A DNA stretch of 64,000 nt, taken from IMG/VR virus record IMGVR_UViG_3300029288_000085, positions 80,335 through 144,334 of that record, one strand, 5' to 3'. Shown here piece by piece: positions 1 to 53,812 of this stretch (its first letter is position 1; each line of letters opens with the position of its first letter). The notes under the pieces are model-generated. The model was not told the DNA's origin. It saw only the letters and a list, made by a program, of their open reading frames with translations, and did no database searches. Position numbers and translations under genes: made by a program. The DNA is from a virus. Lineage: Duplodnaviria; Caudoviricetes.

Positions 1-1
1 A

Positions 2-1018
2 GTTATCCATAATTTCAAGGTATTTGCTTTCTAATTGAGTGCAATTTCCAATTTCCTCAAGATTAGTGAAAGTAAAACCTATATTATGTTTATTTATATA
101 TTTTTCAGTTTCTTTACACCAACAAGCTAAGGAAGGCAATCCTGCCTGGGCATACTCCATCATTTTATTTGATAGAGTTAAATCAACTTGTTGATTCTTA
201 CCACTTTGATTATTCCAAATACATAAACCATATTTATATTGTTTTAAAGCCTTCATCATCTCATCATAATGTGTAGGAGGAAACAAAACTGCTCCAGTAC
301 CATGATAAGTATCAAAAGCGGAAAGATTTCCACAGTACATTGCTGTTTCATTTCCCATTTCTACTAACTTCTTGATGATTCCATAAAGATTACGATATGC
401 ATACATCTCACTTAATTCTTCATCGTCTGGTGGATTTGCTCCACCTTCGTAGACTAATCCTCTTCGTTTAAAGATATCGTTGCGGTCGTAATCATATTGC
501 TTATTACTACTACAATAACTATAGATTACAACATTAGGTATATTTACCTTGTGTAATTCGTTAGTTATCTTCTGTATAGGTTGAGAAGCATATATTAACC
601 CATCTGCTGCATTAAACATCTTCTGTTCATCTAGTGGGATAAACTGTCTCCTAATTGAGTCAAGATCGTGTAGGTCAGCAATGATAGGAACATTTGATCC
701 CATATCAGTTACAACGTTTCTTGCCCAAATAACAGGAAAGTCAGGTTCATTAGAATAATCAATAATATCAATACCCTGACTTATGAATGTTCGTAAGGAG
801 TTCTTAAATTGTTTTTCCCCCTTAAACAAAGCAAACATATCTAGTTCATTTGTACCATAACTATTCATTTCTCCTAAACCAATAGTTGTATATCCTACTT
901 TTCTTAATGCTTTTGCACGTTTATGAACTCGTATACACCAATGACATCCTGCCATCAATATTGTTAAAGGTTTTCCATTTTTATTAGTTAAAGGTTTATC
1001 AAAATCTATATAATCCAT
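2..1018 (-). CDS. Glycosyltransferase, GT-B/GT4-like (truncated by window edge; not in ORF track)
   Basis: Manual translation from ATG at 1018 (GAGGAG RBS upstream): MDYIDFDKPL...ILMAGCHWCIRVHKRAKALRKVGY...IIADLHDL...LVYEGG...SNKMMEYAQAGLP. The C-terminal NK.MEY..AGLP motif is typical of GT4 enzymes. The frame is open to the window start. Confidence 0.75.
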   Translation of the reverse strand, partial: MDYIDFDKPLTNKNGKPLTILMAGCHWCIRVHKRAKALRKVGYTTIGLGEMNSYGTNELDMFALFKGEKQFKNSLRTFISQGIDIIDYSNEPDFPVIWARNVVTDMGSNVPIIADLHDLDSIRRQFIPLDEQKMFNAADGLIYASQPIQKITNELHKVNIPNVVIYSYCSSNKQYDYDRNDIFKRRGLVYEGGANPPDDEELSEMYAYRNLYGIIKKLVEMGNETAMYCGNLSAFDTYHGTGAVLFPPTHYDEMMKALKQYKYGLCIWNNQSGKNQQVDLTLSNKMMEYAQAGLPSLACWCKETEKYINKHNIGFTFTNLEEIGNCTQLESKYLEIMDN

Positions 1019-1046
1019 AATCTCCTCATTAAAGTTTTATATAAAA

Positions 1047-1985
1047 TCATTTACATTGCATATCAGATAGTTTACATCCTTCTATGCTATGTACTTTTCT
1101 CTCACATTCTTTGCATAATGTTATTCCCATATCTACATCAGCACTTTCTATAGGATTCCATCTTATGCCTTCTTTGTGATGAGCTATAAGATTTTCTGTT
1201 GAACCACATTTAGTACATTTATAACCATCACGCTCTTTTACCATTTCAGACCAGTCATGTTGATCTGGTCTTTCATTTTCATTCAGCCTAAACCCTTTAG
1301 GATATTTCTTTTGGTTAAATATAGAACAACTTTTCTTGCACTTGACAGAACAATAAAAATGGTTTTCACTAGTCGTAGTTCCATTAATTGATCTTAATCT
1401 ATTTTCTACTGAGGTTCTAGTTGGTGTATACCATTTTTTGCAATTAGCACATCTTACTTGTAATATATTTTTTTCTTTTGGGTTTTCCCTAATTTCTTCA
1501 CAAAAAGAAATTTGACTAGAATATGTATTAAACCATGCTAAATTTCTTTTAGATACACCATTTTTCCAATTAGGATGATTTTCTTCTCTGAATTTACCTA
1601 TCATAATTTCACTTAATTTTTTTCGGGTTTCTCTAGATACAAACTTTCCCTTTTGGGCAATACTCATCTTTACTTTGGTTTCTTTAGATGTTGGTTTAGT
1701 TCTAATTTTCTTTAGCCCTTTTTGTGCTAATCCCATCCGAATCTTAGTTTCCTCAGATCTGATTTTACCTTTATTACCATAACTAATTTTTGCTTTAGAT
1801 TCATCACTAAACCTTTTACATTTCAAGCTACAAAATCTTCCACAACTATTTCTTGGAGCTAAAAACGGTTCTCTACAAGTTTCACAAGAATCAATATATG
1901 TATATCGGTTATTAGTAATTAAATCCTTCCAATATCCTTTTCTATAATATCTTAAATTTTCTATATTTTCCCAAGTAATTTTCAT
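1047..1985 (-). CDS. HNH homing endonuclease with NUMOD3-like DNA-binding repeats
   Basis: SEETKIRMG/SKETKVKMSIAQKG repeats; C-terminal ERDGYKCTKCG...AHH...GITLCKECERKVH HNH motif. Confidence 0.8.
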   Translation of the reverse strand: MKITWENIENLRYYRKGYWKDLITNNRYTYIDSCETCREPFLAPRNSCGRFCSLKCKRFSDESKAKISYGNKGKIRSEETKIRMGLAQKGLKKIRTKPTSKETKVKMSIAQKGKFVSRETRKKLSEIMIGKFREENHPNWKNGVSKRNLAWFNTYSSQISFCEEIRENPKEKNILQVRCANCKKWYTPTRTSVENRLRSINGTTTSENHFYCSVKCKKSCSIFNQKKYPKGFRLNENERPDQHDWSEMVKERDGYKCTKCGSTENLIAHHKEGIRWNPIESADVDMGITLCKECERKVHSIEGCKLSDMQCK

Positions 1986-1994
1986 TATTTACCT

Positions 1995-2414
1995 TTATAA
2001 TTTAATATGACGGCAACCAAAATTTGCTACAAAGATAAATATTTCCCCTCCTTCTTGGGTTTCTAATAAAATAGGGGAACTCTGTACTGCATGAATAACA
2101 CCATTTGCACTAGCCAAAATATTGTCATTATTGTCAAGTCTGTTAATAATTGATTGCGTTGTTCTGAATCCTTTTTCAGCATCTTTTATCTTTAATCTTA
2201 TCTGAAAAGCTGATTCCTGCCTTTCACCTTTGTCATATGGTTTTCCTCCTGGATATGGCAATATGGTCAAACATTTAGTTGAAGTAGCATCCTCTATACC
2301 AATAAATAGGTTTGTCCCACCAGTAAATGCTACTCCAAACTGAGTAACTATTTCATGAGTTGCTGACAAGTCATCAAAGTACTTTTTTATTTCATTTCCC
2401 AAGAAGTTAGCCAT
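1995..2414 (-). CDS. Tail terminator / neck protein (Minor_capsid_3-like)
   Basis: Size, position after the neck genes, and motifs NLFIG...PYPGGKP...FQIRL...QSSPILL...FVANF. Confidence 0.6.
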   Translation of the reverse strand: MANFLGNEIKKYFDDLSATHEIVTQFGVAFTGGTNLFIGIEDATSTKCLTILPYPGGKPYDKGERQESAFQIRLKIKDAEKGFRTTQSIINRLDNNDNILASANGVIHAVQSSPILLETQEGGEIFIFVANFGCRHIKL

Positions 2415-2418
2415 ATTA

Positions 2419-3186
2419 TTATACCTCAGCGGTTAGCCCGCCCCAATGCCCTTTGCTTCTAACATCCTCAAAACGGATATCTACAGTATCAACTTCGTAA
2501 TGTGTTTTACTTTGTTTCTTAACCTTTATACCTTTAGCTATATCTTTTTCTACTGCTTTAATTGAATTACGTATATAGCTGACTACTTCAGCTTTATGCT
2601 GCAACCAAGGTAATTCCAAGTATTTAGGACCAGTCCCTGGACTTCTAGCATACCATCCACTTCTTATACCTTTAAATCTATCTTCATAAGGTTGTAAAGC
2701 CTCATGAGTCCACAAAGCAATATCAAGACCCGTTTCTTCACTTATTCTTTGATATGAAATATCCCCAGAAACTGTTTTATAATTTCTATCTGCAAATCGT
2801 GATGGAATCATTTTAGATAAATTTACTGAAACAGAGCCATCCTTATTACCAGTAGCAATTGTAATATAATTGGTTTTATTCATATCTCCTAGATATATCC
2901 TAGCCGTGCCACTCTCTCTTAACTTTCCAGTAGATGGTTTTTGTAGTTTGCCGTCTACGTAACCACCAGGAAAATATGGTACAATTGGTTGTACATACCC
3001 CATTATATACGCTAACCCTTCAGCAACAGCCCTAGCAGCATAATAAGTTACAATTGGCCCAATCTGTTTTATATTCTTGATAGCCTTATCAAATTCCACA
3101 TCAGAAGTAGCAAAACTCACACCACCAGAATCAACTAGTGGTTTTGGTCCTTTTCCTAATTCTGGTACTTTGATTTCCATTTTCAT
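2419..3186 (-). CDS. Tail completion / HK97 gp10-like neck protein
   Basis: VP...TGKLRESG and PGTGPKYLE motifs; lies between head-closure and terminator genes. Confidence 0.55.
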   Translation of the reverse strand: MKMEIKVPELGKGPKPLVDSGGVSFATSDVEFDKAIKNIKQIGPIVTYYAARAVAEGLAYIMGYVQPIVPYFPGGYVDGKLQKPSTGKLRESGTARIYLGDMNKTNYITIATGNKDGSVSVNLSKMIPSRFADRNYKTVSGDISYQRISEETGLDIALWTHEALQPYEDRFKGIRSGWYARSPGTGPKYLELPWLQHKAEVVSYIRNSIKAVEKDIAKGIKVKKQSKTHYEVDTVDIRFEDVRSKGHWGGLTAEV

Positions 3187-3216
3187 ATAGTTATATCACT
3201 AACTTACTAATGATGA

Positions 3217-3534
3217 CTACTTTAAATATAAGACCACATGATCTATTTCACCTGCTAGATCTCTCGGTTTTCTTATTTTTACTATCTTATATTTCAGACT
3301 ATCTTTCTCTATAACATAAGACTCTAGAATAGTATTGTATTCTGGAGAAAGATATACTCTTATATCATAATCTAATGCTTCAGCTACATTTGAGAGATCT
3401 TTTAGTGTGCCTTCTTCCCACCGACATTGTACATCGTGATATACGGTGGTTGTAACTAATTTTCCATATGCATTCTTAGTAGTTGAATATATATAGTCAA
3501 TGCTATTATTCAATAAACCTGCTGTAATTGACAT
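3217..3534 (-). CDS. Head closure / stopper protein
   Basis: 105 aa, beta-rich, NAYG...VQCRWE...DLAGEIDH pattern; synteny. Confidence 0.6.
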   Translation of the reverse strand: MSITAGLLNNSIDYIYSTTKNAYGKLVTTTVYHDVQCRWEEGTLKDLSNVAEALDYDIRVYLSPEYNTILESYVIEKDSLKYKIVKIRKPRDLAGEIDHVVLYLK

Positions 3535-3723
3535 TTATTTACCTTTCTTTTTTCGCTTAAAGCCCTTGAGCGTCTTAGCAAGTGCTCACCTACGTTTGCT
3601 TGTAGATGAGAGGCTAGACTGAGCACAATATTCAGAAATTGACATCCCTCTACGATCTGCGGAGGCTATCAAACTTCCTTTTTTAGAAATAGCACTGGCG
3701 ATCCAATTCTTTTTCTTAGCCAT
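3535..3723 (-). CDS. Small basic protein with in-frame TGA at codon 46 (candidate selenoprotein, otherwise nonsense allele)
   Basis: MAKKKNWIASAISKKGSLIASADRRGMSISEYCAQSSLSSTSKRR[TGA]ALAKTLKGFKRKKKGK-TAA; the TAA abuts the ATG of the next gene. Confidence 0.6.
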
Positions 3724-3979
3724 CTAACTCATCACTTCCAATATCAGAATTCACAGTGTCTAAAACTATGTCTGATTTACTTATCACTTTTCGTTTTATC
3801 TTAACTGGAGTCCATCTCATACGTTTTGATCTCTTCCGTGAAAAGGTATCACCGTTTGTCGATCTTAGAAGAACTCTGCCATTATTCAAAAACTTAACAA
3901 ATTCAATCTTGTACCATTTATATCTTAATGAGTGTATTTCAACATACACCTTCTTTTGTTTTTTGAATTGTTTTTTCAT
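3716..3979 (-). CDS. Basic hypothetical protein
   Basis: ORF track; overlapping start/stop with both neighbours. Confidence 0.55.
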   Translation of the reverse strand: MKKQFKKQKKVYVEIHSLRYKWYKIEFVKFLNNGRVLLRSTNGDTFSRKRSKRMRWTPVKIKRKVISKSDIVLDTVNSDIGSDELDG

Positions 3980-4143
3980 TATTTTCTTTTCCGTTTATTT
4001 CTCCTTGTTATTGGAGATTTTGATTTTCTTCTTTTTCTTTTATTCCACCCTTTTGCATGTCCATGTTCACTGACCCACTTTTTCCAAATATCTGGGTGGT
4101 TTATCATTAAAAAATACTCTTGGTCTATAGAGGCAAAAGGCAT
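3979..4143 (-). CDS. Small basic protein, 54 aa (not in ORF track)
   Basis: MPFASIDQEYFLMINHPDIWKKWVSEHGHAKGWNKRKRRKSKSPITRRNKRKRK; GAGGTG RBS; TAATG coupling at both ends. Confidence 0.65.
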   Translation of the reverse strand: MPFASIDQEYFLMINHPDIWKKWVSEHGHAKGWNKRKRRKSKSPITRRNKRKRK

Positions 4144-4226
4144 TATTTAGGACACCTCATCTCATAATATCTACATCCTTTTTGTTGGTGTACTTCTTTA
4201 CACTCTTTACAAAAAGTAATTCTCAT
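4143..4226 (-). pseudogene. Internally deleted HNH endonuclease remnant (27-aa mini-ORF)
   Basis: MRITFCKECKEVHQQKGCRYYEMRCPK matches the N-terminus (MKIT) and C-terminus (ITLCKECERKVHSIEGCKLSDMQCK) of the HNH at 1047-1985. Confidence 0.65.
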
Positions 4227-5252
4227 TTAACATCTTCCGATCCGAATATTCTTGCGTATATATCTAGACAATAATTTTTTGGCTAATGAACATATTGAAG
4301 TCTTTTCAGATGAAGATCCATCACCAAAACTTACAGCTACATCTCCTATTGCTACACTTCTAGCTCCTAAATCTTTGTATGTTGAAAGTGTTTCAATCTG
4401 TTGGTTTTCTGCAATGAAAAGAGTCTGTTCACTCTGTGCATCTTTTATATCTTTAGATAGTGGAAAAAATAACTTGAATTGAGAGTTAATTGTAGGAGAC
4501 GCTGAAAACGATGATTCAAGTGTTATAGATCCGGTGGTTACATTTGATTTACTGATATTTCTTATTTCATAAAGTGGAGTACCAGTAGTTATATGTATAG
4601 TACCTTTTGCAAAAAAATTGGTTGGATATTCATTATAAGTAGATGATTTCAATGTGGAATTTCTAAAGGAACTAGTTGTAAATGGGGTTCCACAGTTACC
4701 AGTTTTTACTTCATGATCATCTCGTGGAAATTGTAATGCTTGTGAATCATAATATTTCTGACCAATAAAACTAAATGAATCTATTTCTTTTGCTGATTCA
4801 ATTAGTAGTCTTTTTTTACCTTCAACATCCAAAGTATCCCACTTATTATCATGCCCATACTTATTTCTGATATAATCATTTGCTTCCTTTAAAGTGATAT
4901 ATGAATTTGCACTCATATCACCTAAATTCGTATTTAATGTAACATTTCCAAACACTTCACAAGTTATATATTTTATATATCTATCTCCAGTGCTAGTCTT
5001 TGCACGAATTTTAATCGAATAAGTTTCACCAGTTACTCCTCTATTGAGTCTAAATTTACCTGTTCTTGGAGAACTTGCAGAAACATTAGACATCATACTG
5101 GCATTTTTAGACACATTGTTGTTATCATAAATAGATGCCCAACAACTAGCAATAGTATCACCAGAGGGAAATTCGTTTGTAAAGTCGTACTTTACATTGA
5201 ATATTTCTGCTGGATACTTATATAACCAAGAATTTTCATAGGTAAATTTCAT
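4227..5252 (-). CDS. Head-tail adaptor (DnaT_2-like) fused to an N-terminal fibre-adaptor-like Ig domain
   Basis: C-terminal ANSYITLKEANDYI...LLIESAKEID...FIGQK...QALQFPR...IKDAQSEQ...SVAIGDVAVSF; N-terminal KYPAEIFNVKYDFT...GDTIAS...GVTGETYSIKIRAKTSTG. Confidence 0.65.
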   Translation of the reverse strand: MKFTYENSWLYKYPAEIFNVKYDFTNEFPSGDTIASCWASIYDNNNVSKNASMMSNVSASSPRTGKFRLNRGVTGETYSIKIRAKTSTGDRYIKYITCEVFGNVTLNTNLGDMSANSYITLKEANDYIRNKYGHDNKWDTLDVEGKKRLLIESAKEIDSFSFIGQKYYDSQALQFPRDDHEVKTGNCGTPFTTSSFRNSTLKSSTYNEYPTNFFAKGTIHITTGTPLYEIRNISKSNVTTGSITLESSFSASPTINSQFKLFFPLSKDIKDAQSEQTLFIAENQQIETLSTYKDLGARSVAIGDVAVSFGDGSSSEKTSICSLAKKLLSRYIRKNIRIGRC

Positions 5253-5265
5253 TTGACATACTTCC

Positions 5266-7476
5266 TTATTTAAATGTTGTTTTCCTTTTATTGGATATAA
5301 AGCTTCTAGATCTCGTTATAATTAGACTAGATGACTTTCTTATTTCTGCAAAATTTCTTGTTCTTTCTAAATCATTAAATTCATATCTGAATACATCATA
5401 TGATGAACTTTGTGAACTAGAGCTAGAAGACTTTGAGCTAGATGATTTAGAACTAGAAGACTTAGAGCTAGAAGACTTTGAGCTAGACGACTTAGAACTA
5501 CTGACAGAGCTAGAACTTTGTGAACTAGAGCTAGAAGACTTAGAACTAGACGACTTAGAACTACTAACAGAACTAGAACTTTGTGAACTAGAACTAGAAG
5601 ACTTAGAACTACTAACCGAACTAGAGCTAGAAGACTTAGAACTACTTTGTGAGCTAGAACTAGATGATTTAGAACTAGACGACTTAGAACTACTAACCGA
5701 ACTAGAGCTAGAAGACTTTGAGCTAGAAGACTTAGAACTACTTTGTGAGCTAGAACTAGATGATTTAGAACTACTTTGTGAGCTAGAACTAGAAGACTTA
5801 GAACTACTTTGTGAGCTAGAACTAGAAGACTTAGAACTACTTTGTGAGCTAGAACTAGATGATTTAGAACTACTTTGTGAGCTAGAACTAGATGATTTAG
5901 AACTACTAACCGAACTAGAGCTAGAAGACTTAGAACTACTAACAGAACTAGAACTTTGTGAACTAGAACTAGAAGACTTAGAACTACTAACCGAACTAGA
6001 GCTAGAAGACTTAGAGCTACTAACCGAACTAGAACTAGATGACTTAGAGCTACTAACCGAACTAGAACTAGATGACTTAGAGCTACTTTGTGAGCTAGAA
6101 CTCTGTGAACTAGAACTAGAAGACTTAGAACTAGATGATTTAGAACTACTAACAGAACTAGAGCTAGAAGACTTAGAACTACTAACAGAGCTAGAACTCT
6201 GTGAACTAGAACTAGAAGACTTAGAACTAGATGATTTAGAACTACTAACAGAACTAGAGCTAGAAGACTTAGAACTACTTTGTGAACTAGAACTAGAAGA
6301 CTTAGAACTAGATGATTTAGAACTACTAACCGAACTAGAACTTTGTGAACTAGAGCTAGAAGACTTAGAACTACTAACAGAACTAGAACTTTGTGAACTA
6401 GAACTAGATGATTTAGAACTACTCTGTGAACTAGAGCTAGAAGACTTAGAACTACTTTGTGAACTAGAACTAGAAGACTTAGAACTAGACGACTTAGAAC
6501 TCGACGACTTAGAACTACTAACAGAACTAGAACTCTGTGAACTAGAACTAGAAGACTTAGAACTAGATGATTTAGAACTACTGACAGAGCTAGAACTCTG
6601 TGAACTAGAACTAGACGACTTAGAACTACTAACCGAACTAGAGCTAGAAGACTTTGAGCTAGAAGACTTAGAACTACTTTGTGAGCTAGAACTAGATGAT
6701 TTAGAACTACTTTGTGAGCTAGAACTAGAAGACTTAGAACTACTAACCGAACTAGAGCTAGAAGACTTAGAACTACTTTGTGAGCTAGAACTAGATGATT
6801 TAGAACTAGATCTACTTGAACTTATACTTGAAGAACTTTTACTAGAAGATGATTTACTTGAACTAGACTTAGAACTAGATGATTTAGAACTACTTTGTGA
6901 GCTAGAACTAGAACTAACAAAAGTACCCCCGCCAAAATCATCAATTCTAAGATTAGTTCCATAACAACATAGTCCGATATATCCAGCAGACCCATAAGTT
7001 GAATCTGTTGTGGATAATTTTTCAGTCCATGCTCCTCCTGTGTAATAATAAGCTTTTAAGGCTGTACCTATCGCCGAAAGTCCAATTTTCTCCCCACTGG
7101 CTACATTCTGAGTCGTAGTTGCTAAGGTTGTCCATCCACCATTAAGCATCTCGTTGATGTCCCATGTGTCAGGAGAATCATTCAGATTTATATCTAAAAT
7201 ATATCCATCGCAAGTACCAATGTTTAAGGTTGTAGTTCTAATTGCAAGAGATACTTCATCATTAGTTACAGTGGATATAGTTGCAAAGACTTCGGAAGCA
7301 GCCCCAAATGTTGCAGTGTCCCAAGCTCCAACATTAAGGGCACCAGCAGTTCCTCCTGTACACGCATTACTCTGAATCTTAAGTGTATTGAGCATATTCG
7401 TCCAATTCGCATTGGGCGGGGTGGTATTATTCGCACCCGTGAATGTTTCAATTACACCAGTAGTAGGAAATGCCAT
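5266..7476 (-). CDS. Serine-rich repeat virion protein (N-terminal beta-sandwich/lectin-like head, ~500-aa poly-Ser stalk, short basic C-terminal tail)
   Basis: ORF track. Residues ~1-187 are globular and Trp/Thr/Gly-rich; residues ~188-692 are Ser runs punctuated by K/Q/V. Located in the virion module directly upstream of the adaptor. Confidence 0.75.
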   Translation of the reverse strand: MAFPTTGVIETFTGANNTTPPNANWTNMLNTLKIQSNACTGGTAGALNVGAWDTATFGAASEVFATISTVTNDEVSLAIRTTTLNIGTCDGYILDINLNDSPDTWDINEMLNGGWTTLATTTQNVASGEKIGLSAIGTALKAYYYTGGAWTEKLSTTDSTYGSAGYIGLCCYGTNLRIDDFGGGTFVSSSSSSQSSSKSSSSKSSSSKSSSSKSSSSISSSRSSSKSSSSSSQSSSKSSSSSSVSSSKSSSSSSQSSSKSSSSSSQSSSKSSSSKSSSSSSVSSSKSSSSSSQSSSSVSSSKSSSSKSSSSSSQSSSSVSSSKSSSSKSSSSKSSSSSSQSSSKSSSSSSQSSSKSSSSSSQSSSSVSSSKSSSSSSQSSSSVSSSKSSSSKSSSSSSQSSSKSSSSSSVSSSKSSSSKSSSSSSQSSSSVSSSKSSSSSSVSSSKSSSSKSSSSSSQSSSSQSSSKSSSSSSVSSSKSSSSSSVSSSKSSSSSSVSSSKSSSSSSQSSSSVSSSKSSSSSSVSSSKSSSSSSQSSSKSSSSSSQSSSKSSSSSSQSSSKSSSSSSQSSSKSSSSSSQSSSKSSSSKSSSSSSVSSSKSSSSKSSSSSSQSSSKSSSSSSVSSSKSSSSSSQSSSSVSSSKSSSSKSSSSSSQSSSSVSSSKSSSSKSSSSKSSSSKSSSSKSSSSSSQSSSYDVFRYEFNDLERTRNFAEIRKSSSLIITRSRSFISNKRKTTFK
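5400..6918. repeat. Low-complexity coding tandem repeat (TCTAGT/TCTAGC units) encoding poly-Ser
   Basis: Plus strand reads gaactagaactagaagacttagaactact...; includes 30-bp units such as ctactttgtgagctagaactagaagactta repeated many times. Confidence 0.95.
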
Positions 7477-38802: not shown

Positions 38803-40710
38803 CTACCTTTTCTTATTTTCTAAGAAGGTCATCCGAAAACGAGGAGCTTGTGCTACTCTAAATGCCATTTCAATAGCATCACAAGCATGATCTGCTGAAT
38901 CATCCTCTCCCGTATAAGTTGTTATTTCTTCCACACATGTTCTATATGACGAATTATATGAATATTTATGTTTATCGAATACTAAAGTACCATCCTTTAA
39001 GAAAGGTACTATACCTTCAAATCTCAATTTCTTATCTTGATAATTATCAATACCCTGAACTGGTATATAAACACCTTGTTCTCTTGATTTCTTCTGGAGA
39101 TCCTTCATAACTACAAATTGAAAGCAATTAGTCTCTACTACAAAAAGTTTATAGTGAAATTCACCATGCTTCTTTAGAATCGCATCTATCTGATCATCCA
39201 CACTTCTAACTTTTTCATCCATTTCTATAACAAAAATATAACCTGTTTCTGGATCTCTTATAAGTGTAACGATACAGGAAGGATCACCCTTTCTACTTTT
39301 TTTACCTAAGCTTAAATCTATTGCACCATAAATTAATCCTTTTTCTGCACCTCTTTGAATTGCATCTGCTATCTTCTTATTTTGTTGGAAATACTCAAAA
39401 TGTAATTCGGCCTCACTAATATATATTTTTGAAGTATCTACTGGAGAATTTTGCTTTTCTGTGATAAAACCACTAGGATTCGAAGATTTATAAACCATAT
39501 TAGCATAATATGTATCACCTTCTGGCCATAAAACCTCAATTCCTTTTAACATCTCTTCTTTATGTTGTTCAAAGAACGCTTTTGCATCATCTTGTCTTTT
39601 TGGATTGAACCTATCTTTAAATAGATTCTCCCACTCATTCCAAAGATCTATATTTTCAGCAAACTTCTCAACAGCCTTAAATCTTGTACTCTTCCACGCT
39701 GGATATTCTTGTGGGTTAAGTAATGAATTTAAAAGTGAATCTTTACCTAAAATTGTTCCTACTACAAAAAAATCTGTTGATGACCCTTCTTCACCACCTG
39801 CAAATAACACTTCTTTATTAAACCACTCATATCTAATCTTATGTCTCTCAACATCAGATTTAACCATTGCATGATTTTCACAATCATCTAAGAGCAGAAG
39901 GTCGGGCCTATGAATACCATACTTTCTACCCCTCACTTTGCTACCTGTACCAAGAGTGAGTAGTTTAACACTATTATTTGTTATAATATCTTCAGTTCTC
40001 CATATTGGCCCCTCACCACAAGCTTCTGGAAAATCTCTTTGCAATTTTTCATTAAGAAGCAATTCTTGTTTTAAATCATAAAGAAAATCAGTAGCCTGAC
40101 CTGCTGTATCTGATATCATTATTATAAACTTCTTTTTCTGATAACAGATACACCACAATGGCATGATGCAACTTACAATTGAACTTTTGCTATTCGCCCT
40201 TGGCGCAGCAATTGCCCATTTTACACCATTAGGATATCGGTTGATGTCTCTTGAAAGTGTGTGATATAAGAATTTATGGAATCTGCTACTTGGTTTCTTT
40301 AGGAAGTGGGGAAAGTATCTTATAGCAAAAAGATAAAGATCATTTTTACATAATAACTTCAGAACTTTCAAATCAGCAGGAGATAAATCATGTTCATCTG
40401 ATTCAATTGCTCTAGGGGATTCTGGAAATACTCTTTCCATATCCCCAGGAGCATGTTTTGGAACTTTTATAATCTCAGATTCATTATTTTCCCAGAACTC
40501 TTTTTCCTGATCAGTTTTATATTTTATCCTCTCATCTTTAGTGTTTTGCCACTTATAAGAGGCTATTTCTTTATAATGTTCAGTTTTGGCAGCTTCAAGT
40601 TCTTTCTCATCAAAATAGGTAACTAGATAATCCGGCAATCCACCTTCAAATTTCTTATCAAGTTCTACCCGTTCGGATTTAATCTCCTCCACTGTCTTCT
40701 TTTGTGACAT
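38803..40710 (-). CDS. terL: Terminase large subunit
   Basis: Walker A APRANSKS, KVRG...RPDLLLLDD.E, VVGT; nuclease AID, VETN, DHACDA. Confidence 0.92.
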   Translation of the reverse strand: MSQKKTVEEIKSERVELDKKFEGGLPDYLVTYFDEKELEAAKTEHYKEIASYKWQNTKDERIKYKTDQEKEFWENNESEIIKVPKHAPGDMERVFPESPRAIESDEHDLSPADLKVLKLLCKNDLYLFAIRYFPHFLKKPSSRFHKFLYHTLSRDINRYPNGVKWAIAAPRANSKSSIVSCIMPLWCICYQKKKFIIMISDTAGQATDFLYDLKQELLLNEKLQRDFPEACGEGPIWRTEDIITNNSVKLLTLGTGSKVRGRKYGIHRPDLLLLDDCENHAMVKSDVERHKIRYEWFNKEVLFAGGEEGSSTDFFVVGTILGKDSLLNSLLNPQEYPAWKSTRFKAVEKFAENIDLWNEWENLFKDRFNPKRQDDAKAFFEQHKEEMLKGIEVLWPEGDTYYANMVYKSSNPSGFITEKQNSPVDTSKIYISEAELHFEYFQQNKKIADAIQRGAEKGLIYGAIDLSLGKKSRKGDPSCIVTLIRDPETGYIFVIEMDEKVRSVDDQIDAILKKHGEFHYKLFVVETNCFQFVVMKDLQKKSREQGVYIPVQGIDNYQDKKLRFEGIVPFLKDGTLVFDKHKYSYNSSYRTCVEEITTYTGEDDSADHACDAIEMAFRVAQAPRFRMTFLENKKR

Positions 40711-41400: not shown

Positions 41401-41643
41401 TCATCCTCTATACCATTCTTCATCAACAACTGTAATGCTCTTGAGAATAGTTATTGGAACGTAGGCTTTTAGAATAGTCTTTCTGCTAAAAAATGACTTA
41501 GGTTTATCACGGAACTCAATTCGTTGATACCCATTTAGTTCATCATTGAAAACTTCAACAAAGTCAGCAGTATACCATTCCTTACTTCCATCTGTGAGAT
41601 TAACTTCCCAAACAATCATGGCTTGGCTTCTCCTCTTCCTCAC
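41401..41643 (-). CDS. Hypothetical protein (likely start at MIVWEV)
   Basis: ORF track; GAGGAG RBS before MIVWEV. Confidence 0.55.
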   Translation of the reverse strand: MRKRRSQAMIVWEVNLTDGSKEWYTADFVEVFNDELNGYQRIEFRDKPKSFFSRKTILKAYVPITILKSITVVDEEWYRG

Positions 41644-42007
41644 AAAAACAGATTACCTTCTGTTTAAACTTCCTATTCCCAAATGCCCTTTTCAACCTGT
41701 CTTTGGCCCTACGCAAATGTGTCTGTACTGAACTTCGACTTATCCCCAACATTTTGGCTACTCTCTCTTGAGTCCTTCCTTGAAGATAAATGATTTCAAC
41801 TATTTGCTTCTGCCTACCTGTCAAATGAGAAAGTAAATCTTCTAATCCGACTTCATCCAATTTAGCATTATCATATGCATCTGCCATATTATAAGTTTCA
41901 GAGTCAAAAGTATCTACGTTGGTACAGATGTATTTCCTTGGTACATAATCCTGATTTACATATTCTTCTCTCTCACTAGGAGTTAAATCATCCCATGATG
42001 GTATCAT
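41600..42007 (-). CDS. Sigma70 region 4-like HTH transcription regulator
   Basis: LTGRQKQIVEIIYLQGRTQERVAKMLGISRSSVQTHLRRAKDRLK. Confidence 0.8.
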   Translation of the reverse strand: MIPSWDDLTPSEREEYVNQDYVPRKYICTNVDTFDSETYNMADAYDNAKLDEVGLEDLLSHLTGRQKQIVEIIYLQGRTQERVAKMLGISRSSVQTHLRRAKDRLKRAFGNRKFKQKVICFCEEEEKPSHDCLGS

Positions 42008-43515: not shown

Positions 43516-43887
43516 ATGAACAACATACCGTGGTCAGAATTTAAACATATACAAGGATCTGAAATATGGCCTTCTCACAATCCAGCAGATTCACCGTTTG
43601 ATAAATTTACGTGTATTCACTGTGGGGAAATCCTACATATCTTAATGTATGGGTCAAGATTTATATGTGAATCTTCATTTGAACAGAAGGCGGAAAGAGA
43701 ACTAATGAATCATTTAAATTGCTGTGGGGAATTTCAGTCAGTTAAAGACAGGAAGAAGTATTTTAAACCAGACGGTTCTTGTACAAATATCTGTCCATGG
43801 GGATATGGTGTTGTAATATCTACTGAATTGTGCATTGCATTGCCAGAGTGTAAAAAGGAGTTTGGGGGTAAAAATGATCTGTATTGA
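43516..43887 (+). CDS. Cys-rich hypothetical protein
   Basis: ORF track; CxxC motifs. Confidence 0.55.
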   Translation: MNNIPWSEFKHIQGSEIWPSHNPADSPFDKFTCIHCGEILHILMYGSRFICESSFEQKAERELMNHLNCCGEFQSVKDRKKYFKPDGSCTNICPWGYGVVISTELCIALPECKKEFGGKNDLY

Positions 43888-44060
43888 CACAGAGGGAATT
43901 CAGCATAATATCTCTTTTGGAAAGAATCTAGCTGGAATAACCCCCAGATTCATAAGAATAGAAATTAATCCAAAGGATATATTAACATATAATCATTTTA
44001 AATATATGCTAGAACATGTGTTTAATGCATTAGCCCCAAATGGAGAATTAGTTATAAAAA

Positions 44061-44645
44061 GTGAGAGTATTAATAGCCTGTGAATTTTCAGGTATAGTAA
44101 GAGAGGCATTCAGAAAAAGAGGGCATGATGCATGGAGTTGTGACTATCTTCCTACGGAAATACCAGGAAATCATATTCAAGGGGATGTTCTATCTATTAT
44201 AGATCAATCTTGGGATTTGATGATTGCCCACCCACCATGCATCCATTTGGCAGTATCCGGTGCAAGATGGTTCAAAGAGAAGATGAAAGAACAGGAAGAG
44301 GCTTTAGACTTTGTCAGGCAACTTCTCAATTCCCCAATTCCTAGAATAGCACTAGAGAATCCGGTAAGCGTAATCTCAACCAGAATAAGAAAACCAGATC
44401 AGATTATCCAACCATGGCAATTTGGGCATGATGAAAGTAAGAAAACATGCTTATGGCTGAAGAATCTTCCATTATTGAAACCAACTAATATCATATTGAA
44501 AGACAGGTATTCAAATCAAACTCCATCAAAGCAAAATAAGCTAGGCCCATCACCAAACAGATGGAAGGAAAGAAGCAGGACATATACTGGAATAGCAGAA
44601 GCGATGGCTGAACAATGGGGGAGTAAATCACCAACCATCACCTAA
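44061..44645 (+). CDS. DNA cytosine-C5 methyltransferase (short phage type)
   Basis: VLIACEFSG, WSCD, IAHPPC, ALENPV, QPWQFGH, K.TCLW, RS.TY.GIAEAMAEQW. Confidence 0.85.
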   Translation: MRVLIACEFSGIVREAFRKRGHDAWSCDYLPTEIPGNHIQGDVLSIIDQSWDLMIAHPPCIHLAVSGARWFKEKMKEQEEALDFVRQLLNSPIPRIALENPVSVISTRIRKPDQIIQPWQFGHDESKKTCLWLKNLPLLKPTNIILKDRYSNQTPSKQNKLGPSPNRWKERSRTYTGIAEAMAEQWGSKSPTIT

Positions 44646-44678
44646 AATAACCTAATTTGGCTGAAAGCTAGGAAAACT

Positions 44679-45322
44679 ATGAAAATAAGCACTTTTATAA
44701 GAGAAAAAATAGCCAATTTCCAAAAAACCATCTGGGAGAAAATTTCATTTTTAGCCCAGAATTGCACAGATGAGCAGAAATTGCAACTACTGAAGAAAAT
44801 GGAGGCATATGAAAAACGAAGCAAATTGAAGCAAATTGAAGATAGGAAAATTAGAATACCATTTCTATTCTAATAACCAAAAAGGAAATTTTCTAAGGAG
44901 GGATTATGTTAAATTGGTTACGCAAACGACTTTTTCTCAGTGATCATGAATGGAAGAAGAAGAACTGTCCAACACTATACAACTACCTTTTTGAACTGAA
45001 TGATGAAGAACGACATTCTGTTTTTGAGAAAATCGTGGAAAACAGTAAACAGAATAGAGTCTGTCCTACCTGTCATGGGATTTATTGGGATGAAACCTGT
45101 CCAGAGTGTTCAGGTAGACATTCTTGTGGAGGATATGAGATAAGGCTAAAGTAAATTTTTTTGTGAAAATTTTTTGGGGGATGAGCCATGTATATAGAAG
45201 AGATAGGGGCTATTTTAGCAGAAATAGCAACTATTGTAGGAGAAATAGTAGTAATATTACTTATAGTAGGATTATGTATAGCAGGTATATTAGGGCTTAT
45301 TAGACTATTTGAAAAGTGGTAG
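44679..45322 (+). CDS. Three small hypothetical genes (44679-44873, 44906-45154, 45188-45322; the last is a membrane protein)
   Basis: ORF track plus manual translation MYIEEIGAILAE...IRLFEKW. Confidence 0.5.
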
Positions 45323-45386
45323 TTATAATTTTATATGAATATGGTTATGGGGGTAGGTTGCCCCTTTTCTCCCTTGCGAGTCAACA

Positions 45387-45971
45387 TGCAAGTATCGTGC
45401 CAGGGCAAATTCTCTAGTGTTATCCACTATTTAGCTATTCACATATTCAAAATACTCAATTCCCTAATCATATCAAGTGCTTGTGTCCATATGGCATAGT
45501 CTATGCATACATGCATAGGGTGTGCCAATGTAACTTGGTTGTTGCACTCACAAACAGTATGGCATAGTATATGCATAAAGCTTACTTTATATCCTAATAA
45601 CAGATAGTTATATCCATACTAAGATCGTATGACTTACCTATCAATAAATATGACATATACCTGGATATGGTATGGTATATGCATAGTCAAGAACTATGCC
45701 ATATCAAAACCATACCATATCACTAGGACTATTCCCTGTATGCATATACCATGCCAGTCTATTCCCTAGCTATATCCATCGGTTAAATCCATACTAAGAT
45801 CGTATGACTTACCTATCAATAAATATGACATATACCTGGATATGGCATAGTTTTTGACTATGCATAGACTATGCCAAATAGACCTGGGCCATGCATAAGT
45901 CATGCCAATACTCGATTATGCCCTGGTGAGCATTGGCATAGTCCTTGATCCGTAGTCATATCAGCAAGTTA
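45387..45971. promoter_or_regulatory. Non-coding array of 11 sigma54-like -24/-12 boxes with IHF consensus sites
   Basis: TGGYA-N8-TGCA boxes on both strands, e.g. TGGCACGATACTTGCA (45402-45387); IHF-like TATCAAGTGCTTG at 45471 and TATCAGCAAGTTA at 45959. Confidence 0.7.
45612..45845 (+). repeat. 59-bp exact direct repeat (45612-45670 and 45787-45845)
   Basis: atccatactaagatcgtatgacttacctatcaataaatatgacatatacctggatatgg occurs twice. Confidence 0.9.
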
Positions 45972-48540: not shown

Positions 48541-48856
48541 TTTATAGAGAGTCATACTTTTTGCCTTTCGAGGTTTCTGCAATGCTTACCAGGTATGTTA
48601 TGCAAAGCCTATGCCACATTTTTCTATCCAAGCAAAAAAGCATTAAGTCGCTAAAGAAGGTTAACAACAATAACCTTAAAATTATATCAGAAAGGCTTAA
48701 TGCTTTTTTGCTTGTATAGAATTTTAGATTTACATTTTCAGTGTAACCATTTGTATTATAATGGTTTTTTAGCGGTACAAAATTTACTGAACAAAATCAG
48801 GGAGTTAAACTATGTGTAAGAGATATTACGATGATTACTGCTCAGTGAGATAAATT

Positions 48857-53548: not shown

Positions 53549-53812
53549 ATGAATAAAGTAAGATCGTGGAGTTATCAAGAAAAACCTGTATGGCAACATA
53601 ATTGCACTAGGTGCAAATTTATTATTGCAATTAATTTCTTTAATGAAAAAAATGAAATAATTGGTTCTGCGGATATCTATGAGAATTGCAATAGTATAAG
53701 AAGAGTAACGGATTTTTTAATCCGTTTTTCCTCAGAAGGTTCTGATTATGCTACATTAGGCCAAAATATACTATTTGCTCATTATGTAATAGATAATCAA
53801 GGGTGGAGATAA
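53549..53812 (+). CDS. Zn-binding hypothetical protein, paralog of 56294-56563
   Basis: P.W...C..CKF...D.YE.C...DY shared between the two. Confidence 0.6.
   Translation: MNKVRSWSYQEKPVWQHNCTRCKFIIAINFFNEKNEIIGSADIYENCNSIRRVTDFLIRFSSEGSDYATLGQNILFAHYVIDNQGWR

Follow-up and report, generated by a model that had tools for sequence, protein, structure and literature searches.

The locus described here lies in a window of 64 kb, the whole stretch of DNA that was analysed, which forms the final part of the 144,334-bp IMG/VR virus record IMGVR_UViG_3300029288_000085; positions are given in this window. The record has a GC content of 31%, and its two ends share a repeat of 127 bp, which we read as an overlap left by the assembly of a genome that is circular or permuted, so that the ends of the record would not be the physical ends of the DNA. 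A length of exactly 127 bp is typical of an assembler k-mer overlap, and the repeat should not be taken for a physical terminal one. By gene content the phage is of the siphovirus type: the minus strand carries the genes for the large terminase (TerL), the portal, a 1767-aa tape measure and a lambda-J-like tip protein, and the plus strand those for DNA polymerase A, a primase-helicase, an SbcC-like nuclease and NrdA. The terminase belongs to a Mu-like family (phrog_38), its best cultured matches being those of Mushu- and D3112-type phages (31–34% identity), and the known members of this family package their DNA by the headful mechanism. The first protein of the late operon (135 aa, 41600–42007, minus strand) matches phage "RNA polymerase sigma factor" families of the sigma-70 type (region-4-like, best E 2e-12); a role in directing late transcription is conceivable, and the protein is unrelated to sigma-54.

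The two arms of the genome diverge at about 42.7–43.5 kb, and the site of interest is near this strand switch and near the turn of the GC skew. The plus arm starts with six small genes (43516–45322), all without an assigned family except a gene for a 194-aa protein of the phrog_757 "DNA methyltransferase" family (Table 1). Homologues of this protein, 52–63% identical, are encoded in three of the array-bearing viral contigs described below (L057, L252 and L221), and in L057 the gene lies some 350 bp downstream of the array; it was not counted as array-linked, because it was taken to be widespread in phages. The small-gene operon is closed by a terminator-like hairpin and T-run, the hairpin being no more stable than those of shuffled sequence. 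A gene-free gap of about 0.9 kb then separates the stop at 45322 from the next starts (46196/46263), where more small genes follow, and no family could be assigned to the small ORFs flanking the gap. It is in this gap that an array of sigma-54 (RpoN)-type boxes is found, at about 2.4 kb inside the plus arm and behind the six small genes and the hairpin, and thus not at the head of the early region, where a previous reading of the sequence alone (hereafter the sequence-only reading) had placed it.

As for the host, the endolysin (GH108 plus PG_binding_3), the J-like tail tip and the use of Shine-Dalgarno sequences (52% of the starts vs 7% of random positions) suggest a diderm bacterium outside the Bacteroidota. 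No relative of the RmlB-like protein of the phage was found among bacterial genomes, NrdA fell in viral clusters only in the Atlas, and the homologues of the endolysin were metagenomic only. The phage genome contains neither a gene for sigma-54 (rpoN) nor one for an enhancer-binding ATPase, the sole PF00158 match being a clamp-loader-type AAA+ protein, which was for that reason rejected as a sigma-54 activator, and no recognisable enhancer repeat lies near the array.

The array consists of eight full boxes (A1 to A8, GG-N10-GC) and three degenerate ones (B1 to B3, GG-N10-GA) in 563 bp, five of them on the plus and six on the minus strand, and one further full box is isolated in the next non-coding gap, at 48601 (Table 1); positions and strands agree with those given in the sequence-only reading.

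Table 1. Boxes, repeats and neighbouring features of the array (positions in the window).
Feature	Position	Strand	Remarks
Large terminase (TerL)	38803–40710	-	starts 4.7 kb from the array, across the strand switch
194-aa protein, GTG start, PPC and ENP motifs	44061–44645	+	phrog_757 "DNA methyltransferase", no Pfam match
Hairpin, then TTTTCT	45349–45365	+	terminator-like; closes the small-gene operon 43516–45322
A1, single box, TGGCACGATACTTGCA	45387–45402	-	full sigma-54 consensus match; top score of the genome, 25.7 bits, 80th percentile of the class
15-nt direct repeat flanking the array	45461–45475, 45949–45963	+	contains IHF-like cores at 45471 and 45959
A2 + A3, face-to-face pair	45492–45507, 45512–45527	+, -	starts 20 bp apart; hairpin-capable
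A4, single box, TGGCATAGTATATGCA	45560–45575	+	pattern and matrix match
60-bp box-free segment, copies 1 and 2	45607–45666, 45782–45841		near-identical; copy 1 heads the 175-bp tandem unit; one copy precedes each duplicated pair
A5 + B1, face-to-face pair	45668–45683, 45686–45701	+, -	A5 of TGGTAT type; B1 with GA for GC at -12
A6, single box, TGGCATGGTATATGCA	45741–45756	-	pattern and matrix match
B2 + A7, face-to-face pair	45843–45858, 45861–45876	+, -	B2 is a GA variant
A8, single box, TGGCATGACTTATGCA	45892–45907	-	20.7 bits
B3, single box, GA variant	45934–45949	+	rightmost box; points toward the downstream genes
Isolated box, TGGCATAGGCTTTGCA	48601–48616	-	next non-coding gap, right after a terminator and facing back into it; 19.3 bits

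When the region was scanned against a shuffled background, the TGG-N9-TGC motif occurred 8 times in 601 bp, vs 0.42 ± 0.63 times (maximum 3) in 2000 dinucleotide-preserving shuffles, and all other spacings from N5 to N8 and from N10 to N14 gave counts of zero, the enrichment being thus restricted to N9, the spacing of sigma-54 sites. Of ten matches to TGGYAYRNNNNWTGCA (TGGYAYR-N4-WTGCA) in the whole genome, eight fall within 45387–45907 and a ninth is the box at 48601; the reversed control gave none. GG and GC exactly 10 nt apart within TGGCAY...TGC(A/T) are present in the eight full array boxes and in box 48601, which keeps a TTGCA element at -12 and carries TGGCATA at -24; among the array boxes the extended consensus TGGCACG-N4-TTGCW is fully matched by A1 only. 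With a matrix derived from boxes found in other viral contigs, the six highest-scoring sites on both strands of the genome are five boxes of the array (A1, A3, A6, A7 and A8) and box 48601, all on the minus strand and directed leftward. Two other candidates look like chance: a cluster of TGG-N9-TGC at about 35.3–35.8 kb, which has no TGGCA core, and a box at 53591, which lies inside a coding ORF.

The boxes are arranged in three face-to-face pairs (A2/A3, A5/B1 and B2/A7), whose boxes start 20, 19 and 18 bp from each other, and five single boxes (A1, A4, A6, A8 and B3); the GA variants are the weaker partner in two of the pairs and the rightmost single box. Part of the array, two pairs included, arose by a tandem duplication of 175 bp (98 nt at 87% identity), whose unit comprises the 60-bp box-free segment; both copies of the segment contain a leftward sigma-70-like promoter match (TTGATA-17-TAGTAT) and, as a further feature, a direct repeat TATGAC 21 bp apart. 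In the two duplicated pairs (45668–45701 and 45843–45876), the central 18 bp are identical at 16 of 18 positions when one is inverted and at 9 of 18 in direct comparison, and are flanked by the arms TGGYATRG / CTATGCCA, which suggests that recombination between the arms of a pair may have inverted the central segment. The local boxes resemble each other (TGGCATRGT.TATGCATA) beyond what sigma-54 would need, the palindrome TATGCATA being found at five places in the array and at two elsewhere in the genome; A1 and box 48601 lack this half-site, yet fit the sigma-54 consensus. Between the partners of the three pairs, 3, 2 and 4 of the 5 spacer positions agree (manual count), and the pairs can fold. 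The excess likeness and the folding would fit a recent duplication and, equally, a specific phage-encoded binder. An Rfam search gave sub-threshold chance matches only. With regard to IHF, whose sites the sequence-only reading had associated with the boxes, the strict WATCAR-N4-TTR core occurs twice in the gap vs 0.24 expected, both times within the flanking 15-nt repeat, and the case for an involvement of IHF is weak: the two sites are of low information, and over 112 arrays, among the matches listed, the core has only twice the density of the surrounding DNA, which is mostly coding.

Similar arrays are present in many other viral contigs. A pattern of two TGGCAY-N6-TGCA boxes within 34 bp, searched in 2.9 million viral contigs, was found at at least 120 viral loci vs 22 for the reversed pattern, and most of the listed loci hold 3–16 boxes per 600 bp, beyond what the pattern demands, vs 0–3 per locus in the controls. 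The array-bearing contigs span 26–64% GC, among the matches listed, and are not relatives of the present phage. In a profile of 454 unique boxes from 87 loci among the matches listed, T precedes TGG in 65% of the boxes, -21 is C or T in 98%, -20 a purine in 93%, -15 is T in 85% and A in 5%, and A or T follows GC in 94%; the positions left free by the pattern thus reproduce the sigma-54 consensus (T-TGGCAY-R...T-TGC-A-T-R). The four to five bases of the spacer vary, and the spacers of the two partners are complementary, as a hairpin would have them, in none of the 126 unique strict viral pairs listed; since the spacers vary and do not pair, it is the bipartite box that is conserved and not an RNA or DNA hairpin. 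The recurrence of the same bipartite motif, with variable spacers, in arrays of many unrelated viral contigs supports the original view, in that the boxes look like sigma-54-type sites and not like arbitrary repeats.

Within this class, face-to-face boxes are 18–22 bp apart (mode 19–22), back-to-back boxes 25 bp and boxes on the same strand about 26–31 bp, with 26–29 bp in the profile of unique boxes. Where the flanks are clear (58 arrays), the array is located between divergent genes in 33 cases and in varied places in the others, and boxes facing outward at the outer ends, as divergent promoters would need, were found in 5 of the 58. No activator gene was found in five other array-bearing records. 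A 147-kb viral contig (L077) has 34 boxes in 6.5 kb (1–6511). In two other contigs of about 140 kb (G002 and G003) the boxes are dispersed, those of G003 being nearly all on the same strand, and look like a working sigma-54 promoter regulon and not like a single array. At 47 loci of about 45% GC (L031 and 46 others), in a group of contigs for which a marine origin is a guess, the array is just upstream of a conserved block encoding a small unknown protein, an endolysin, the large terminase, the portal and the major capsid protein. Exact 18-mer matches were obtained in 16 viral contigs, approximately the number estimated for chance, with real arrays in L019 and L023 only.

In 596 Gb of genomes of bacteria and archaea, only 28 stretches carry the strict face-to-face pair, which is present at at least 120 viral loci. 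Moreover, of the 26 unique bacterial pairs, 14 form perfect hairpins, vs none of the 126 listed viral pairs. These bacterial hairpins are dispersed REP-like palindromes, mainly of Actinobacteria without rpoN, and are a separate phenomenon. For example, the chromosome of an Acidimicrobiales MAG (L176, L177, L184, L187, L190, L191 and L193) contains, at least nine times, a perfect palindrome of 42 bp that fits the pair pattern, and the DNA-binding domain of RpoN was not found in the same MAG, a caution against calling sigma-54 sites from the pattern alone. Two contigs from bacterial bins with at least six boxes, in a Planctomycetales and in a Saprospiraceae MAG, are suspected to be binned phage contigs. 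As for the five genomes richest in boxes, three encode rpoN and the two without it are small MAGs of 1.5 and 2.6 Mb, which are probably incomplete. The class of arrays is virus-specific; this, like the motif, its clustering and its geometry, is a matter of direct observation.

The present array is a divergent and atypical member of this class. It holds at least four boxes per 600 bp of non-coding DNA in mixed orientation, and the spacing of its face-to-face pairs is within the 18–22 bp of the class. It differs from the class in its three boxes with GA for GC, in its location between co-directional operons and at position -15, where seven of the eight full boxes have ATGCA and one TTGCA. With the class matrix the array boxes other than A1 reach only the 3rd to 29th percentile. 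Since the experimentally enriched sigma-54 sites of Salmonella fdhF (TGGCATAAAACATGCATA), hycA and zraP also carry A at -15 (PMC3844500, Table 3), this base does not exclude sigma-54; low-scoring boxes with A at this position would be weak decoys. Relatives keeping the region were sought by TerL in viral and metagenome contigs and by a 200-aa early protein in viral contigs, and none was found; the best TerL relatives (53–55% identity) are on contigs too short to include the syntenic place, and these contigs have no boxes. When cultured phages were searched at the DNA level with the region, with the packaging region and with two loci of the class, no match was obtained. Thus characterized, the present array adds to the class a low-GC siphovirus of 144 kb and an fdhF-like ATGCA variant of the box, and gives an example of how such arrays may grow, through duplication in tandem and through inversion of what lies between the two arms of a pair.

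The reading to which we incline, with confidence about evenly balanced, is that the array provides docking sites for host sigma-54 or its holoenzyme, on which silent complexes would be parked as decoys or roadblocks and would not act as promoters of the genes behind them. The binder and its effect are what we infer here. According to this scheme, host sigma-54, alone or as the RNA polymerase holoenzyme, would first dock on the boxes; the closed complex would then remain silent, with no activator ATPase nearby and with the start points inside the partner box, where they fall because paired boxes face each other at 18–20 bp; the array as a whole would be a decoy, a place where complexes are parked, or a barrier that separates two early operons. 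Docking of parked complexes is favoured because a closed complex of sigma-54 is stable, and remains silent, as long as no activator acts on it (PMC3844500). The distribution of the boxes argues in the same direction, since unrelated phages share the motif, a fact that a binder private to one lineage does not explain and a conserved host factor does. To our knowledge, sigma-54 is the only conserved host factor with such a specificity.

A more specific form of the docking reading, to which we give a rather low probability, is that such arrays act as DNA sponges, the hundreds to thousands of densely packed sites of the replicating genome soaking up scarce host sigma-54 together with the polymerase bound to it. 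If this were true, the sigma-54-dependent stress, envelope, motility and RNA-repair responses of the host would be turned off without any phage protein, by a nucleic-acid anti-sigma strategy from which the host could escape only at the cost of its own regulon. Relations between phages and sigma-54 are known from other work, rpoN being a host factor for Salmonella phages by way of glutamine and RpoS (PMC8744999) and some phages encoding sigma-54 regulators (PMC3391216).

A different possibility, which we consider unlikely, is that the boxes, above all A1, A3, A6, A7, A8 and 48601, are working leftward sigma-54 promoters fired by a host activator, which would yield small RNAs or else RNA that is antisense to, or interferes with, the early operons of the plus strand. 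The common leftward direction of the six best-scoring sites, less expected of a decoy indifferent to orientation, and the perfect consensus of A1 would be in agreement with it, as would the dispersed, co-oriented and promoter-like boxes of some records of the class (G003), the single sigma-54-type promoters of Pseudomonas phage YuA (PMC10914365) and the intragenic and antisense sigma-54 sites that can drive transcription in Salmonella (PMC3844500). However, the minus-strand boxes face the hairpin and plus-strand genes, no minus-strand genes being present on their left, and only the degenerate B3 faces the next genes, from a distance of 250 bp; half of the sites face each other so closely that their start points lie inside the partner; and the phage, as described above, has neither an activator gene nor a recognisable enhancer repeat. 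This face-to-face layout in both orientations, with no gene behind, upholds the earlier opinion that the boxes are unlikely to be ordinary promoters.

We consider it improbable, to a similar degree, that the boxes are iterons bound by a phage or host protein unrelated to sigma-54, at a replication origin, a packaging site or an operator bank, in which case two 8-bp half-sites, TGGCATAG and TATGCATA, set one turn of the helix apart would produce the GG-N10-GC spacing incidentally. The excess likeness of the boxes, with its recurring TATGCATA palindrome, the pairs, which are near-palindromes that fold, the closeness of the strand switch and of the GC-skew turn, and a neighbourhood of small unannotated proteins (one of them with a zinc ribbon) and of the sigma-70-family-like protein would all suit such a site. 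On the other hand, the bipartite motif and the geometry of the pairs recur in many unrelated phages, which a private binder fails to explain, and A1 and box 48601 match the sigma-54 consensus without the TATGCATA half-site; in addition, no initiator, partition or terminase gene is found within 2 kb on either side, and DnaA boxes are not enriched.

It is much less probable that the array is of no use to the phage and arose as a palindromic repeat that expanded neutrally or selfishly. The recent 175-bp duplication with the 18-bp inversion between its copies, and the REP-like palindromes that fit the pair pattern in bacteria lacking rpoN, are what such an expansion would produce; against it, unpaired single boxes retain the GG/GC core, and in a class that is virus-specific the spacers vary and the core is kept, which points to selection on the box. 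Finally, it is hardly credible that the array is an entry or terminus element, as the sequence-only reading had proposed, or an injection-stop element like the iss of the first-step-transfer DNA of T5. In its favour, the stretch is non-coding and repeat-rich and lies amid small early genes, in a large siphovirus that also encodes a polymerase, a primase-helicase and a nucleotide reductase. Against it, such boxes are absent from the whole of T5, its iss region included; the terminase falls in the Mu-like family, whose known members use headful packaging; the ends of the record look like an assembly overlap of 127 bp; and the arrays of the class are at varied places, most often between divergent genes.

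Sigma-54 promoters are known as single, activator-dependent sites that drive genes. Dense bidirectional arrays, common in viral contigs and nearly absent from bacterial genomes, would indicate that the silent sigma-54 complex is used beyond ordinary transcription, candidate uses being titration, a barrier between operons and a reservoir of polymerase. The author of the sequence-only reading knew of no description of such arrays in phages, and a full-text literature search likewise returned no paper describing them, so that, as far as found, the dense sigma-54 box arrays of uncultured phages are unpublished.

Among the known systems, the closest in sequence are the bacterial sigma-54 -24/-12 promoters, such as those of Salmonella fdhF, hycA/hypA, zraP/zraS, pspA and glnA (PMC3844500), with which the boxes share GG-N10-GC, TGGCAY at -24 and TGCA at -12, fdhF matching the local box consensus at 14 of 18 positions; unlike them, the array has 11 sites in 0.56 kb, in both orientations and with overlapping pairs, most of them without a gene behind and with no enhancer or activator. 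Pseudomonas phage YuA (Ceyssens 2008, as cited in PMC10914365) is alike in using the host sigma-54 motif and differs in that its promoters are single, have mapped start sites and drive genes; the box pattern had no match in the YuA record, which has no array, nor was an array found in the record of one Vibrio phage. The T5 iss (NC_005859 annotation) is likewise a non-coding, repeat-rich region of about 1 kb among the early genes of a large siphovirus; by contrast with the present array, it is free of sigma-54-type boxes, and what defines it is its position within a terminal repeat of 10 kb. Arrays of iterons and of centromere sites (plasmid and phage origins, parC/parS, and lambda cosB with IHF) are also clusters of short non-coding repeats in two orientations, but their motifs are private to a replicon and adjoin the gene of the binder, whereas here the motif is common to unrelated phages and no such gene adjoins. 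Lastly, the transcription-factor decoy arrays (PMC8599769, PMC3322331), which concern response regulators and synthetic yeast systems and neither a sigma factor nor a virus, share with the docking reading its central concept, that of repeated sites titrating a regulator.
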